Below, piece by piece: positions 3,974 through 60,651 of a DNA stretch of 64,000 bases. A model generated the notes under the pieces. That model was not told the origin of the DNA. It made no database searches and saw only the letters and a program-made list of their open reading frames with translations. The DNA is from a virus. Where the stretch lies: positions 4,394 to 68,393 of IMG/VR virus record IMGVR_UViG_3300009184_000044; one strand, 5' to 3'. The position numbers and the translations under genes are program-made. How positions within the stretch are numbered: the stretch's first letter is position 1; each line of letters begins with the position of its first letter.

Positions 3974-4471
3974 ATGAGAGACTTAAACGCAGTTGATTCT
4001 GAGGCACTACGCCTCAAGAATATGCTTGACGGGGTACTGGAACGTGTGCAGAGTGTATATCAAAGCTACAACGTTCCACTACCTAATCGCCAGTATTGGA
4101 TGATTGGTGAGCCAGCCTTAGACTGCGAGCAAGTTGTTGTTGCCTTTGACCAGCTATATTTAGGAACTCCGGGAGATGAGATTGCTCAGCCAAACCGATG
4201 CAATGTTCCTCGTAGTGCTACGTTCCGTATTCTAATTGCCAGAGAAGTTGCTGTTGTTGGAGTAAATGGTCGCCCACCGACGGGTGAAAAGATTCAGCAG
4301 ACTTCTGTACTACCAACAATTGACGCTTGGATTCTTATGGAGACTGTTCGTGAATTTGATATGTGGGATGAAAGCGGTTATGGTCTTGGCGTTGTTGCTA
4401 GCTTAGAAATTGCTGGACCTGAAGGTGGATTCAACACAGTGGGGCTCAGACTAACGATGGCAGTTCCTTAA
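3974..4471 (+). CDS. tail completion / terminator-type virion protein
   Basis: Synteny in the neck/tail module; C-terminal GPEGG motif. Confidence 0.5.
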   Translation: MRDLNAVDSEALRLKNMLDGVLERVQSVYQSYNVPLPNRQYWMIGEPALDCEQVVVAFDQLYLGTPGDEIAQPNRCNVPRSATFRILIAREVAVVGVNGRPPTGEKIQQTSVLPTIDAWILMETVREFDMWDESGYGLGVVASLEIAGPEGGFNTVGLRLTMAVP

Positions 4472-23109: not shown

Positions 23110-23659
23110 TTTTCTTTTTACTAGCAGCTTTAGCATCTTTAGCTGCTTGCTTGGCTTTATTTTTTTCTCTAATCTTTTGATTTTTAATCTTATCTCGCTC
23201 AGCTTTAGCTAATCTTTCAGCTAACCAAGCGTGATAAGCATCTACAGCATTTGCACTAGTTCTACTCTGCCATTGAAATTTACAACTAGAGCATTCAACT
23301 ACACGCATAGTCGACCAACGACCTCCGGTTGGACGCTTTACTGTTTTAGTCTTTAGTTTTATTGTTGGTGATGCACAGTAAGCACAGATAGGATACTTAC
23401 CTCTACGCATTTCTTGACCTTCCCAGTTAATAGAAAGTGCTCTTCGCATTTCTCCCTGGTCTAATCCGCCCCAAACTCCATACATTTGTTTTTCCTCTAA
23501 AGCACTCTTGACGCAGTCTTTTCTCACGGGACAGGTAAAACATAAACTTTTGGCTTGCTCTTGTTCATACTTTTTATTAGAAAAAAAGAAGTCCATTTTG
23601 TCTCTATTTTTTAGTTTTCCGCACTCGGCATCTTCATACCATTCAGGATTGGTAATCAC
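23102..23659 (-). CDS. whiB: WhiB-family transcription factor with C-terminal zinc ribbon and basic tail
   Basis: W...A.C, AKSLCFTCPVRKDC and YGVWGG (four Cys plus G[IV]WGG), then CAYC...CSSC. Confidence 0.85.
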   Translation of the reverse strand: MITNPEWYEDAECGKLKNRDKMDFFFSNKKYEQEQAKSLCFTCPVRKDCVKSALEEKQMYGVWGGLDQGEMRRALSINWEGQEMRRGKYPICAYCASPTIKLKTKTVKRPTGGRWSTMRVVECSSCKFQWQSRTSANAVDAYHAWLAERLAKAERDKIKNQKIREKNKAKQAAKDAKAASKKKTI

Positions 23660-24003
23660 TCGTCATGCACCTCTACAAAAGTAACGTGTAGAACTTCAGC
23701 GACTTCATCTCCATTTATGGTTGAGCCGTCATCTTGGCAAAAAGTAAGGTGATAGTTTCCATTTACTTCGCCCGCATATCCTTGGGATATAGCGGCAGAG
23801 TCTAAAAGTTTGAAGGCATCACCTAAAGAGGAAACAACTCCGTCTCTTTGGATAGAGGATGCTAATGCTCGCCTAACGACTTCGTGGTCTAGGTCAACAT
23901 GGTCGTAGGTAAAATATATAATCGAGCTATCTTCTAGCTTACGGGGGTAGCTATAGCCATCCCACTCAAACCAAAGCGACTCGCCTTTTCTGGAATCTTT
24001 CAT
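23656..24003 (-). CDS. hypothetical protein, probably leaderless (ATG 24003)
   Basis: ORF track gives 23656..24048. CTGACA-17-TACAAT lies 6 nt before ATG 24003. Confidence 0.6.
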   Translation of the reverse strand: MKDSRKGESLWFEWDGYSYPRKLEDSSIIYFTYDHVDLDHEVVRRALASSIQRDGVVSSLGDAFKLLDSAAISQGYAGEVNGNYHLTFCQDDGSTINGDEVAEVLHVTFVEVHDE

Positions 24004-50333: not shown

Positions 50334-50672
50334 ATGCTAGAAAACCTTATACCTAAGGATTACCCTGATTTTGAAGAGCATGGAACCCCTCCTTGTGCTG
50401 AGTCATTCCCGGATGCATTCTTTACGACAGACAAGAGTGAATCTTCTGTCTTGAGAAATGGCAAAGTTTCTATGAAAACTTGGGCTAGGTATGACTATGA
50501 AAAAGAGGCTAAAGCTATCTGTGCTGAATGTCCTTACAAAAAAGCCTGTCTAGAGTTTGCCCTAAAGTATTCAGAAATTGGTATCTGGGGTGGAACTACT
50601 GAGCTAGAGCGTAGAAGAATGCGACCAGCTCATAATTTAGGTTCAACTAGCCAGCCTCGTCCTAGAGTATAA
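50334..50672 (+). CDS. whiB: second WhiB-family transcription factor
   Basis: PPCAESFPDAFF, AKAICAECPYKKAC and GIWGGTT..ERR motifs. Confidence 0.9.
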   Translation: MLENLIPKDYPDFEEHGTPPCAESFPDAFFTTDKSESSVLRNGKVSMKTWARYDYEKEAKAICAECPYKKACLEFALKYSEIGIWGGTTELERRRMRPAHNLGSTSQPRPRV

Positions 50673-51490: not shown

Positions 51491-51790
51491 GGGGATGACT
51501 GGTTTCGACAGTTGTCTTGATGTTAGTGAAGCAAGCAGAAACGGCCACGCATTCTTAAAGTGTGGTAAAACAATAAATGCTGAACGTACTTCCGCATTCG
51601 CTCTAGCCGCGTGATTTAATCGCAACGCTTAGGCCCCTGACAAAGCACTAGTTCTAGGTGGGCAGTCAGGTTTTAAATAAATAGAACAACCCTCTCGTAG
51701 TGCCCTGCAATACCGTGGTTGGTAAAACCTAAGCTTGTAGAAGAATAACTGAATGTCAATTGGACCGGGGTTCGATTCCCCGCATCTCCA
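51491..51790 (+). ncRNA. ssrA: tmRNA
   Basis: 5' GGGGATGACTGGTTTCGAC. 3' T-arm CGGGGTTCGATTCCCCG and CATCTCCA give a 7-bp acceptor with G3:U. The tag ORF at 51579-51614 reads AERTSAFALAA*, after AATAAAT. Confidence 0.95.
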
Positions 51791-51848
51791 CGCTTGTAGA
51801 CAGAGGAGCGTAAAGCGGTCTACCCGTCCTAGGCAACGGAATCTCCAA

Positions 51849-54455: not shown

Positions 54456-55115
54456 ATGGAAACTCTTGACCCTGGCTTAGCCCTCTTATATGCACGCGTT
54501 TCTACGCAGTTGCAGGTGAATGATGGCGTATCGCTGGATGTACAGGAAAGGCAGTTGATTACAGCTGCTGAGTTCCACGGATTCACTCGTTGGGAAATTA
54601 TTCGTGAGGAAGGTCGTTCTGGTAAGAGTATTACTGGTAGACCTGCCCTTACAGCCGCCCTTAGTCGCCTAGAGACTGGTGATGCTCAGGCATTGTTCGT
54701 TACTCGTATTGACCGCCTAGCTCGTAGCACAACGGACTTCTTGGACATCGTTGATAGGGCAAACAGGAAAAATTGGCGTTTGATTATGCTAGACCTAAAT
54801 CTAGACACTTCTTCTTATCAGGGGCGTTTCGTGGTTACGATTATGTCTGCTTTGGCTGAGATGGAGCGTGGAATCATTTCTGCTCGTCAAAAGGACATCC
54901 ACAAGGATAGACGAGACCGCGGGGTGAAGTGGGGCGTTGATATGGGCCCTAAGAATAAAACTCCTGAAGAAGTAAAGAATAGGGTATACTCCGAACGAAG
55001 TCGTGGCCGCACCTATCGTGATATAGCTAACGGACTGAATGCTGATGGGATATTGGGGCAAAATGGGGGAAAGTGGTACCCGACCACAGTAAAGAATTTG
55101 TTGGATAACGAGTAA
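54456..55115 (+). CDS. serine recombinase (resolvase/invertase-like), leaderless
   Basis: YARVST..Q, SG...RP.L and RIDRLARS, with a C-terminal IA..LN.DG...GKW..TTV domain. TAAACT lies 6 nt before the ATG. Confidence 0.9.
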   Translation: METLDPGLALLYARVSTQLQVNDGVSLDVQERQLITAAEFHGFTRWEIIREEGRSGKSITGRPALTAALSRLETGDAQALFVTRIDRLARSTTDFLDIVDRANRKNWRLIMLDLNLDTSSYQGRFVVTIMSALAEMERGIISARQKDIHKDRRDRGVKWGVDMGPKNKTPEEVKNRVYSERSRGRTYRDIANGLNADGILGQNGGKWYPTTVKNLLDNE

Positions 55116-55412: not shown

Positions 55413-55591
55413 TGCATCAGGAGAACGCTAGGTCATTTGTTCTTGGCTTTGAAGCTGGTGAAGCTTCAGAACAATTACGCATTCTTAAGTTGCTAGAAAA
55501 TAGACGCAAAGAGTATGTTGCAAAACATTACATTGATGGTATACTAGAAATGGACGAGCTTATTGCTCTAATCAGAGGAGAGAATGAATGA
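55412..55591 (+). CDS. hypothetical protein, paralog 2 (59 aa, not in the ORF track)
   Basis: MHQENARSFVLGFEAGEASEQLRILKLLE...ELIALIRGENE*; overlaps both neighbours. Confidence 0.65.
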   Translation: MHQENARSFVLGFEAGEASEQLRILKLLENRRKEYVAKHYIDGILEMDELIALIRGENE

Positions 55592-55785
55592 GTAACCCAG
55601 AAAACGGAGCCGCTCGTAATACTATGAGTGAGTTTGAACGCCAGTGTTATGACTGGGGTTGGGCGGATTCTAAAGAACGCATAATCAAACTGTTAGTAGA
55701 GGCAGATACTACTCACCTAAATGCTGAAGGGCTAAAGGGTTGGTATTTTGCACTCGGCCTTATTGAGGGAGAGACTGATGAATGA
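55588..55785 (+). CDS. hypothetical protein, paralog 3
   Basis: DSKERIIKLL...LGLIEGETDE. Confidence 0.65.
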   Translation: MSNPENGAARNTMSEFERQCYDWGWADSKERIIKLLVEADTTHLNAEGLKGWYFALGLIEGETDE

Positions 55786-58907: not shown

Positions 58908-59463
58908 TCGGATGCTAATTGGTTTAGCGGGGTATGCTCGCTCTGGTAAAGACACACTTGCTGATGACCTAGTTCAAAATGCTGACTATACAAAGATTGC
59001 TTTTGCTGACCCTATGCGTGAGGCATTGGTTCGTCTAAACCCAACTATTGAGGTTGGTGGATTCAAGCTGGCTAAGTTGGCTACTGCTGTAAATGTTTTT
59101 GGCTGGGAAGAATTGAAAAAGATAAGCCCAGATATTCGTGGACTAATGCAAAGACTAGGAACAGAAGTTGGTCGTCAGATGTTTGGCGAAGACTTTTGGG
59201 TTCAGCAGACTATGAAACGAGTTGCAGAAGTTTCTGGAAACTGTGTTGTGTCTGATGTTCGCTATCCTAACGAGGCTCAGGCTATTAGAGATGCTGGTGG
59301 TATCTTGATTAGAATTGAACGTAATGGCGTAGACGCACCTAATGACCATACTTCTGAAACTGCTTTGAGCTCATTTGAGTTTGATTATGTTTTGAGGAAT
59401 GATGAAAGTATTGAGTATTTTCTACGCAATGCTAAATCCGTCCTTATAGAAGTGCTAAACTAA
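58900..59463 (+). CDS. deoxynucleoside monophosphate kinase
   Basis: IGLAGYARSGKDT, FADPMRE, RGLMQRLGTE.GR, SDVRYPNE and H.SE motifs. Confidence 0.9.
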   Translation: MSSRMLIGLAGYARSGKDTLADDLVQNADYTKIAFADPMREALVRLNPTIEVGGFKLAKLATAVNVFGWEELKKISPDIRGLMQRLGTEVGRQMFGEDFWVQQTMKRVAEVSGNCVVSDVRYPNEAQAIRDAGGILIRIERNGVDAPNDHTSETALSSFEFDYVLRNDESIEYFLRNAKSVLIEVLN

Positions 59464-59495
59464 TTTCAAATTTACTAATAGAACAAGAGACTAAA

Positions 59496-59771
59496 ATGCG
59501 TGAACGCTACATTCGTAAGCTACAAAAGAATCGCCACTTGGCTGAGATTAGTTTTAATATCTTGGCAAATGTAACGTTCAAGAACCTAACTGCTCGTGAG
59601 CGTAAGCAGATGGCTAAGTTGATTTACAAGGCTGAGTTGCTAGAGATGGAAGTAAAGAGTCGTAAGATTGCTGACACTATGAAGTCTTTCAAAGACCTTA
59701 TGGATAACATTGATATGCAACTAAAAGACGGAGATTTTGGCGATGATGATGATGATGATTTCTTCAAATAA
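59496..59771 (+). CDS. hypothetical protein with acidic C-terminus
   Basis: 91 aa, basic N-terminus and DDDDDFFK tail. Confidence 0.6.
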   Translation: MRERYIRKLQKNRHLAEISFNILANVTFKNLTARERKQMAKLIYKAELLEMEVKSRKIADTMKSFKDLMDNIDMQLKDGDFGDDDDDDFFK

Positions 59772-59818
59772 TTCGGCGTTTCGCCCCAAGGCCCGTAGAA
59801 GAGGACTATAATAAATAG

Positions 59819-59909
59819 TGTAATAAAGGTTTTTTGTGTTCCCCTTTATTACTGCTCCTTTCTGCAATAAGAAACCCTCGCCTTTACTTTCTTCAGGCGG
59901 GGGTTTTTT
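59819..59909 (+). ncRNA. candidate small RNA with an anti-Shine-Dalgarno linker
   Basis: TATAAT at 59807-12; 10-bp hairpin at 59820-52; single-stranded CTCCTTTCT at 59855-63; terminator hairpin at 59869-909; no ORF. Confidence 0.65.
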
Positions 59910-59969
59910 ATTTAATAAATATATGTAAATGTATTTGACAAGTACTTGTTTTGTGTGTATGTTCTAGAT

Positions 59970-60452
59970 ATGCAAACATTTTTACCTTATAAAGATTTTG
60001 TCCTATCTGCTCGAGTGTTAGATAACAAACGCTTGAATAAGCAGATTCTTGAGGGATATCAAATCCTCAAAGTCCTCACTAGTGATGACCCTAATGCTGC
60101 TTGGCGCAACCACCCTGCTGTAAAAATGTGGAGAGGTTGTGAGACGGCACTTATGACTTATGTTTTTGACTGTGTCAATGAAGCTAATAAACGTGGCATA
60201 AAGACAGAAAATAATGTTGCTAATATAAAAGCTTTATATTTTGATAGGTCTGAGAAGTTCGGTAATGGCTACCCTAATTGGTTCTATGACGAGAAGAAGT
60301 TATCTAGAGTTATGGCAACGCATAAAGCAAACTTGTATCGCAAAGACCCTGTGTACTATTTTCAGTTCAGTAGTTCAGTGGATGATGTAGATAACAAACC
60401 TTGCTGTGATAAATGCAATTACTACTGGGTAACGCATGTCAGTGGAGTTTGA
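59970..60452 (+). CDS. pyrimidine-dimer DNA glycosylase / endonuclease V-like (MSMEG_6728 family), leaderless
   Basis: MQTFLPY.DF..SA.VLD.KRL.KQ..E, W.NHPAV.MWRG and H.ANL.RKDP.YY motifs. TTGACA-17-TATGTT lies 6 nt before the ATG. Confidence 0.85.
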   Translation: MQTFLPYKDFVLSARVLDNKRLNKQILEGYQILKVLTSDDPNAAWRNHPAVKMWRGCETALMTYVFDCVNEANKRGIKTENNVANIKALYFDRSEKFGNGYPNWFYDEKKLSRVMATHKANLYRKDPVYYFQFSSSVDDVDNKPCCDKCNYYWVTHVSGV

Positions 60453-60651
60453 GAAACAACCTTGGAGTTATAGAATTATGCATAAGACAAGAAATAAATT
60501 ACCTAAAAGATTTCAGCTAACTTTTACTTTAGTAGGGCTTACTATCTTGGCTGTTATCTTGTCGGGACTCTATTTAATATGTGTTGGTGTGTGGAAACTA
60601 TTGCGGCCGATACGAAAGTTGATTAGTAAAATTATAAATAAAACTAGATAA
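60436..60651 (+). CDS. small membrane protein
   Basis: One TM helix flanked by basic residues. Confidence 0.5.
   Translation: MSVEFEKQPWSYRIMHKTRNKLPKRFQLTFTLVGLTILAVILSGLYLICVGVWKLLRPIRKLISKIINKTR

Follow-up and report, generated by a model that had tools for sequence, protein, structure and literature searches.

A putative anti-Shine-Dalgarno small RNA family in WhiB-bearing freshwater phages

Described RNAs and the phage locus

Streptococcal csRNAs fold into two stem-loops. The unpaired region between them is complementary to the Shine-Dalgarno sequence, and in the excerpt cited here 53 of 61 also contain the start-codon complement CAU (PMC3091779). We identified an element of comparable design in a virus record, IMG/VR IMGVR_UViG_3300009184_000044, of which 64 kb (positions 4,394 to 68,393 of the record, hereafter the window) were analysed. 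All coordinates below are positions in this window, which is part of a single 68,393-nt record. The element lies on the plus strand, would give an RNA of about 90 nt and displays between two hairpins a copy of the end of the 16S rRNA tail. Very probably it belongs to a genuine and so far undescribed family of small RNAs in WhiB-bearing freshwater phages, since its layout recurs in 21 of 34 distinct related loci, its hairpin co-varies and it has no match in Rfam.

The phage RNA resembles the csRNAs, as far as that excerpt describes them, in size and in holding the motif unpaired between two stem-loops, and in 12 of 22 phage members a CAT is found 6-12 nt 5' of the TCC of the motif. However, csRNAs belong to the chromosomes of Firmicutes, whereas the phage RNA comes from actinophage-like contigs; the two share no sequence similarity, and no csRNA appears among the Rfam scan matches. 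In the csRNAs of the excerpt CAU lies in the open region, whereas in the phage RNA it usually lies, where present, inside the 5' hairpin, and the window copy has none. The csRNAs are also CiaR-dependent, while the phage RNA is found in a WhiB-bearing freshwater record, where control by CiaR is not expected. The promoters of CiaR-dependent csRNAs contain a repeat, and no direct repeat was found in the 35 nt upstream of the element.

In Actinobacteria, the 6C (B11) sRNA binds several mRNAs via exposed C-rich sequences without a chaperone, according to the portion of the source used (PMC6486639), which by analogy shows that short C/G-rich pairing can suffice in these bacteria. This RNA is chromosomal and has C-rich hairpin loops, in contrast to the CU linker and U-rich loops of the phage RNA, and the Rfam scans gave no 6C match to the element either at the gathering score or at E <=10. 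Over the whole window, only a transfer-messenger RNA (tmRNA) passed the gathering score of Rfam 15, and for positions 59700-60000 at E <=10 the best match was BSnc120, which scored 24.5 bits where its gathering score is 114; each of the 29 matches fell far short of its threshold. In Firmicutes, RsaE/RoxS and the loops of RNAIII expose pyrimidine- or C-rich motifs that pair with Shine-Dalgarno regions and block initiation. These RNAs belong to other families, with CCCC or UCCC motifs, and to our knowledge none of them has been reported as a phage-borne literal copy of the 16S tail.

Among phages, abundant non-coding RNAs of the mycobacteriophages L5, D29 and StarStuff were found by RNA-seq at the right end of the genome or in other intergenic gaps, with about 500 bp transcribed. 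Their descriptions mention no anti-Shine-Dalgarno motif in the excerpts at hand, and a distant-mode search of a phage collection with 59300-60500 gave no match. The RegB endoribonuclease of T4 is a phage protein that shuts off messages by attacking the Shine-Dalgarno sequence GGAG, and thus is a precedent for the use of the ribosome-binding site as a common handle by a phage, but it is a protein enzyme and not an RNA. Type III antitoxin RNAs of the ToxI type are tandem repeats beside a toxin gene, unlike the phage RNA, which is present as a single copy per record and is flanked by a 91-aa helical protein and a DNA glycosylase. Full-text literature searches found no description of a freshwater actinophage small RNA or of a phage RNA that copies the 16S tail, and the terms sRNA, tmRNA and non-coding are absent from the consulted text of two papers on freshwater actinophages (PMC10202952, PMC6802176). 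We file the element as a new family of putative anti-Shine-Dalgarno small RNA, whose design is closest to that of the csRNAs.

The element in the window and its relatives

The element occupies a 198-nt gap between the 91-aa open reading frame (ORF; 59496-59771, plus strand) and a denV-like gene with its ATG at 59970. It begins with a -10 box, TATAAT, at 59807-59812 (6/6 consensus), from which transcription is predicted to start at 59818-59820, the 6th to 8th nucleotide past the box. A perfect 10-bp stem-loop follows at 59820-59852, in which GTAATAAAGG (59820-59829) pairs with CCTTTATTAC (59843-59852) around a U-rich loop of 13 nt, TTTTTTGTGTTCC. The single-stranded linker TGCTCCTTTCTGC (RNA UGCUCCUUUCUGC) at 59853-59865 contains the proposed seed CTCCTTTCT (RNA CUCCUUUCU) at 59855-59863, and a Rho-independent terminator at 59869-59909 closes the element with a 15-bp stem that includes an A-tract/U-tract, a GC core CCCTCGCC/GGCGGGGG, an 11-nt loop and six T. 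These parts had been described in a sequence-only reading of the locus, and all of them are present where that reading placed them. That reading also gave the element no ORF; mechanical ORFs of 34 aa (59834-59938, plus strand), 30 aa (59836-59928, plus strand) and 48 aa (59721-59867, minus strand) cross the hairpins, and they have no counterpart in the relatives.

The RNA 59815-59912 folds exactly to this structure at -36.3 kcal/mol, while shuffled sequences fold at -16.4 +/- 2.75 kcal/mol (z -7.24) and none of 200 shuffles was as stable. The mean unpaired probability of the linker motif is 0.89. The terminator is missing from the standard scan listing because that scan allows only loops of 3-8 nt; when loops of up to 13 nt were allowed, it was one of only five sites in the 68,393-nt record with a hairpin plus T-run. 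CTCCTTTCT occurs once in the record, counting both strands, which alone is within chance, as about 0.5 occurrences of any one 9-mer are expected in a record of this size. It is the comparative data, rather than the sequence of the window alone, that carry the case.

Relatives were collected with a profile of the 91-aa protein, built from 32 of its 64 homologues, which yielded 15 metagenome and 31 viral loci, or 34 distinct sequences. The shared layout in the 21 loci consists of a -10-like box, a hairpin of variable sequence about 7 nt from that box, (C/T/A)TCCTTTC and a terminator that is rich in GC and has a T-run, right past the stop codon. The same layout with a degenerate CU stretch is found in L210, L211 and L238, L240 has a CU-rich stretch and a terminator and no clear -10 box, and nine of the 34 loci are without the motif. 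In one of these nine, L225, the region behind the 91-aa homologue (1470-1600) holds a TAGAAT box, a hairpin and a terminator with no CU motif, and may represent a replaced or diverged RNA. A search with the DNA pattern alone (motif plus terminator) recovered the known members together with three further loci, L287/L299 and L292, which carry diverged 91-aa homologues (55% and 43% identity, respectively). A looser pattern, TCCTTTCT..GAAACCC, gave mostly chance matches among those listed from viral contigs. The gene order of 91-aa gene, RNA and leaderless denV is shared by the window, L215 and three loci identical to it, L208/L209/L224, and L223.

In a 24-row MAFFT alignment with a mean column identity of 47%, TCCTTT is invariant or nearly so. 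In addition, a near-identical strain (run X5) has 16 listed differences from the window in 59480-60100 and none within 59807-59909. Conservation of the linker in relatives, which the sequence-only reading had proposed as a check, is thus borne out by this core and by its presence in 21 of the 34 loci.

The promoter was tabulated in 23 members. A TAnnnT box lies at a constant distance before the 5' hairpin in 22 of them, the other being L244 with TAGGTT, and in all 23 the 5' stem starts 0-3 nt beyond the 7th nucleotide past the -10 box. Lengths of 79-104 nt are predicted for the RNAs. A perfect -35 box, TTGACA, is found in four members (L206, L221, L220 and L236, with a spacing of 16-18 nt), while one further member matches at 5/6 positions and six at 4/6. 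Members with a 6/6 -35 box have -10 boxes of 4-5/6, and those with a perfect TATAAT have a poor -35; this compensation is the pattern of working promoters and supports a stand-alone gene.

These data also bear on another explanation, in which the element is the structured 3' end of the 91-aa transcript, comprising a stabilising hairpin and a terminator, with no action in trans and with the CU stretch kept for local pairing. Consistent with this, the -35 is poor (2-3/6) in the window, L215 and L200. A longer fold, of 59772-59969, pairs a purine-rich stretch, GTAGAAGAGGA at 59795-59805 (plus strand), with the CU linker, as could happen on a read-through transcript from the 91-aa gene, and by eye the motif can also pair with a purine run before the terminator, for example as TCCTTT/AAAGGA in L220, L230 and L231. 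On the other hand, the perfect TTGACA of the four members stands directly past the stop codon at the proper distance from the -10, and therefore the unit is probably transcribed on its own there; in L003 the element occurs in the absence of the 91-aa gene, between a thioredoxin-like gene and denV. The purine stretch is at best clade-specific, as it has counterparts at the same place in L200 (GTAGAAAGG) and L215 (CAGAAAAGGA), is absent from other clades and varies at 59795 and 59801 in the near-identical strain. Near the terminator, the bases opposite the motif change register from member to member and do not co-vary with it, and a plain terminator does not need an invariant motif of 6-8 nt. 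We consider it improbable that the element is no more than such a 3' end.

A stand-alone gene is further supported by the co-variation of its structure. A covariance model (R2) built from the window clade only gave full-length matches in other clades, including L220 (E 4e-5), L233 (1e-4), L230 (1.7e-4) and L231 (2e-3), and E-values from 4e-5 to about 0.1 over the 18 expected members. On the R2-guided alignment, 10/10 pairs of the 5' stem and 7/11 pairs of the terminator change on both sides, and across 24 relatives the terminator shows compensatory changes in 7/14 consensus pairs. The 5' stem is paired in 87.8% of cells among the members outside model building, and 93.9% of cells pair in the R2-guided alignment, compared with 73.0% in shuffled sequences (0/500 reach the observed value) and 49-66% with slid partners. 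These figures lean towards structure, because the alignment was fitted to the model and two of its 20 rows are probably spurious (L230 2198-2277 and L287 on the minus strand), which weighs against the family as proposed; the gap between real and shuffled pairing nevertheless remains persuasive. Searches of whole records with R2 found the known copy in the record of G000 and in that of L233, and none at E <=1 in the record of L221, for which a direct cmsearch of the copy gave E 0.03-0.09. The phage record has one copy of the small-RNA gene.

The same tabulation of 23 members covered the minus strand, on which AGAAAGGA(G) might serve as the ribosome-binding site of a small ORF. A start codon is indeed found 5-12 nt past AGGA in 14 of the 23 members, 12 of them having ATG. 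However, in the other nine, among them the window, no start codon follows AGGA at a distance of 3-13 nt. In the window, where the sequence-only reading had already noted the missing start codon, this applies to ATG, GTG and TTG alike. The ORFs are 1-74 aa long and their frames shift between close relatives (L204 MSTNNH..., L206 MLNNKQ...), so that no frame is conserved and the minus-strand ORF was rejected. The stem is followed by a T-run only when read on the plus strand, which also carries the promoter-like boxes with -35/-10 compensation, and no promoter is evident on the minus strand. A coding role on the minus strand is thus very improbable. By the same comparison, we dropped the 'Family B' loci (L255, L258, L276 and others) as small RNAs, as they are actually minus-strand gene starts with a Shine-Dalgarno site, 6 nt, an ATG and ORFs of 24-214 aa. 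Since these loci show a real Shine-Dalgarno-ATG-ORF order, the test separates gene starts from the RNA family.

From promoter compensation, the co-varying 5' hairpin and the terminator, we are strongly confident that the element is a real small-RNA gene, as comparative evidence now upholds for the stand-alone gene first suggested from one sequence. Its independent transcription in the window itself is inferred from the relatives, because the best -35 hexamer there matches at only 2/6 positions and the TATAAT is without a usable -35. This counts against the window copy as an autonomous gene, and read-through from the 91-aa gene plus processing is a possible alternative source of the RNA. A GCGTTT box (59776-59781, plus strand), which directly follows the end of the 91-aa gene and precedes the -10 by about 25 nt, may be an upstream promoter element. 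By eye, GCGTTT(T/C) is found at the same place in the window, L215, L204, L206, L207, L221 and L222, with GCGTGTTTT in L208, while the surrounding bases differ.

Proposed pairing with ribosome-binding sites and competing roles

The motif CUCCUUUCU reproduces exactly the final nine bases of the 16S rRNA tail; its UCCUUU is the part that is invariant or nearly so family-wide. The tail of the actinobacterium Bifidobacterium longum is given as CACCUCCUUUCU in the excerpt of one source (bioRxiv 10.64898/2026.08.12.744520), and GAUCACCUCCUUUCU is described in an excerpt of another as widely conserved in 16S tails (PMC6288834), so the equation of the motif with the tail end, first made without a database, agrees with both. 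The host is presumably an actinobacterium. WhiB is used as a marker for phages of Actinobacteriota in the excerpts available from two studies (PMC10202952, PMC6802176), and the guess at an actinobacterial host made by the sequence-only reading is reasonable because the record carries WhiB and the stretch occurs in freshwater metagenomes. Searches of bacterial and archaeal genomes with the 91-aa protein profile, and with the phage WhiB protein, gave no match.

The ribosome-binding sites of the phage centre on AAGGA, the complement of UCCUU, with 34-40 of 68 genes covering each of the five central positions. A Shine-Dalgarno match of at least 4 nt, mostly AAGGA, precedes 57 of the 68 crude gene calls made for the record, and at least 5 nt of the motif complement are found in 28/68 upstream regions compared with 3/68 control windows inside genes. 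Inside genes, AAGGA is depleted on the sense strand (52 occurrences against 95.7 expected from codon shuffles, z -4.8), and therefore the potential binding sites of the RNA are concentrated at gene starts. In addition, the CATs that lie 6-12 nt 5' of TCC account for 13 of the 16 CATs in the 5' parts of the members, and CAU, spacer and UCCUUUCU on the RNA form a mirror image of a generic start region.

These observations are consistent with the following mechanism. An RNA of about 90 nt (window ~59818-59909, plus strand) would be transcribed early from a host-type promoter. Its 5' stem-loop, beginning at the first transcribed bases, would shield the 5' end, and the terminator would shield the 3' side. 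The open CU segment, (C/U)UCCUUUC(U), would pair with AAGGA/AGGAG Shine-Dalgarno sites, and in about half of the family a CAU 6-12 nt upstream might pair with the start codon as well. Such pairing would keep 30S subunits off those messages. Transcription, the ends of the RNA, pairing in vivo and the messages affected (of the host, of the early phage genes or of both) are inferred. We regard action by pairing with Shine-Dalgarno sites as having about an even chance of being correct.

Several points weigh against this mechanism. The Shine-Dalgarno counts are inflated, because gene starts were chosen partly by Shine-Dalgarno energy. Duplex scans of the phage start regions revealed no outlier target: pairing with start regions averages -9.9 kcal/mol, only slightly better than the -8.35 kcal/mol (sd 3.3) averaged over the genome, and chance sites inside genes pair more strongly than the best of the start regions (-17.1 kcal/mol). 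That region, upstream of 55588-55785, was dropped as a candidate target since it contains an 8-nt match of which about 0.7 are expected by chance. The motif complement is enriched at the phage ribosome-binding sites as a group, and no single target stood out. The clade of the window has no CAU, and the motif is partly paired in some members, its unpaired probability ranging from 0.46 to 0.93 across the 18 members that were folded. The phage genes use the same type of Shine-Dalgarno site, and therefore a general block would hit the phage too. Finally, a 9-nt seed must compete with ribosomes that bear the identical sequence.

The sequence-only reading had gone further and proposed that repression of messages with strong Shine-Dalgarno sites would favour leaderless transcripts of the phage. 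This idea fares poorly because most phage genes have Shine-Dalgarno sites, in the 57 of 68 gene calls given above; the denV-like gene does look leaderless, and one or two others may be.

The exposed copy of the 16S tail could also act as a decoy that absorbs a host endoribonuclease toxin cutting the anti-Shine-Dalgarno tail, thereby protecting ribosomes as a form of anti-defence. Actinobacterial toxins that cut exactly this sequence are documented in the excerpts cited: MazF-mt3 cleaves single-stranded U^CCUU, including that of the 16S anti-Shine-Dalgarno sequence, and MazF-mt6 cleaves UU^CCU (PMC5408214); MazF-mt11 removes the anti-Shine-Dalgarno sequence by cutting just before it (PMC12274833); and RelE1 cuts the anti-Shine-Dalgarno region (PMC12620021). 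The invariant core UCCUUU, displayed single-stranded, includes the MazF-mt3 site. Moreover, TCCTT (31 against 49.7 expected, z -2.9) and TCCTTT (4 against 14.8, z -3.0) are depleted on the phage sense strands relative to codon shuffles, while six of the seven other pentamers made of C and T only are not (|z| <=1.3). However, depletion is stronger still for AAGGA, which is TCCTT read on the opposite strand, and that of TCCTT may therefore be strand-symmetric or reflect avoidance of words resembling Shine-Dalgarno and anti-Shine-Dalgarno sequences. Each RNA offers one copy of the motif and each record one RNA gene, as opposed to thousands of ribosomes; no such toxin is known from the host; and a decoy leaves the CAU at Shine-Dalgarno-to-AUG spacing unexplained. 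We judge a decoy role unlikely. When bait for toxins that clip the 16S tail (MazF-mt3, MazF-mt11 or RelE1-like) is taken together with a switch that silences Shine-Dalgarno messages and spares leaderless genes, the chance that one or the other applies is slightly higher and still small.

A protein might equally be the partner of the motif, if the pyrimidine stretch were a sponge for a host protein that binds the 16S tail or CU-rich strands, such as bS1 or an enzyme of maturation or decay. An invariant single-stranded CU motif between hairpins suits a protein site as well as a seed, and no mRNA target stood out in the duplex scans. Nevertheless, no protein partner is indicated, the neighbouring 91-aa helical hairpin is without a recognisable RNA-binding fold, and the spacing of CAU points to pairing with start regions instead. 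Such a sponge is quite improbable.

Genomic setting and significance

The record is estimated by CheckV to be 51% complete, has a G+C content of about 42%, and the stretch is contained in freshwater metagenome runs (24 runs are listed, with DNA or kind unspecified and none recorded as RNA). Genes of the record include WhiB at window positions 50334-50672, a class II ribonucleotide reductase, Hsp20, a DNA methylase and a dNMP kinase. We also found a full-length tmRNA gene at 51491-51793 (plus strand), which scores 115.6 bits in Rfam and encodes the tag peptide AERTSAFALAA; its distance to both WhiB and the small RNA is a few kb. A serine recombinase ORF at 54456-55115 (plus strand, 219 aa) combines a Resolvase domain with only the initial half of a Recombinase domain (covering its positions 6-52 out of 102), and is possibly truncated or split.

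The 91-aa protein, whose gene accompanies the RNA in most relatives, matched no Pfam or PHROG family and, at E <=0.001, no PDB fold. Its AlphaFold model (pLDDT 86.8) is a hairpin of two long helices with a disordered acidic tail, DDDDDDFFK, which somewhat resembles the acidic tips at the C-terminus of single-strand-binding proteins. On the other side, the denV-like pyrimidine-dimer glycosylase gene (PF03013, E 2e-17) marks the downstream boundary of the RNA. It looks leaderless, as its promoter and start (59935-59972, plus strand) read TTGACA, 17 nt, TATGTT, 6 nt and ATG and lack a Shine-Dalgarno site. Among 61 distinct upstream regions taken from denV homologues, 11 share this layout (loci L001-L009, L024, L029, L033, L040 and L049). 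Another set of loci (L012-L013, L018-L023, L025, L028, L031, L034-L036, L043-L044, L047-L048, L050-L053, L056 and L058-L059) has denV promoters of the TTGACAAGCAAGCG..TATAAT type, and this phage group has a conserved leader, GGTCCATTAAACGAGAGAG or GTTTCCGTTAAAC, directly before the ATG. Within the window, a second possibly leaderless gene lies at 23656-24003 (minus strand; CTGACA, 17 nt, TACAAT, 6 nt, ATG), and the recombinase gene at 54456, with TAAACT, 6 nt and ATG, may be a third.

Two other conserved elements were seen among the relatives. A second non-coding element, not present in the window, lies about 20-130 nt past the terminator of the small RNA in L201, L204, L206, L221, L222, L233 and L235, and comprises a CCCC..GGGG hairpin followed by TTTCTTTCTAGGGGC, TTATTACGCG and GCCTTTATGCCTTGTCTAG ahead of convergent genes. 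A different conserved element occurs in about 20 viral loci (L246, L247, L248, L252, L257, L264, L269, L270, L275, L311 and duplicates), in which, by eye, an upstream AGAAAGGAG could pair with a downstream CTCCTTTCT, with a second CU-rich hairpin and a terminator behind it.

The small RNA is a compact case, in which a 90-nt RNA has kept one invariant motif of 6-9 nt equal to the 16S tail while the neighbouring protein is only 40-60% identical, and it is a candidate new family for Rfam. Its presumed hosts, freshwater actinobacteria, are abundant and hard to culture. Were it a decoy, the RNA would represent a novel type of RNA-based counter-defence, and a decoy or a translation switch, although less likely, would be much more novel than an anti-Shine-Dalgarno small RNA. 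If it blocks ribosome-binding sites, it would give these phages a simple tool for reprogramming translation, in a phylum that is rich in leaderless translation and in toxins that cut the 16S tail.

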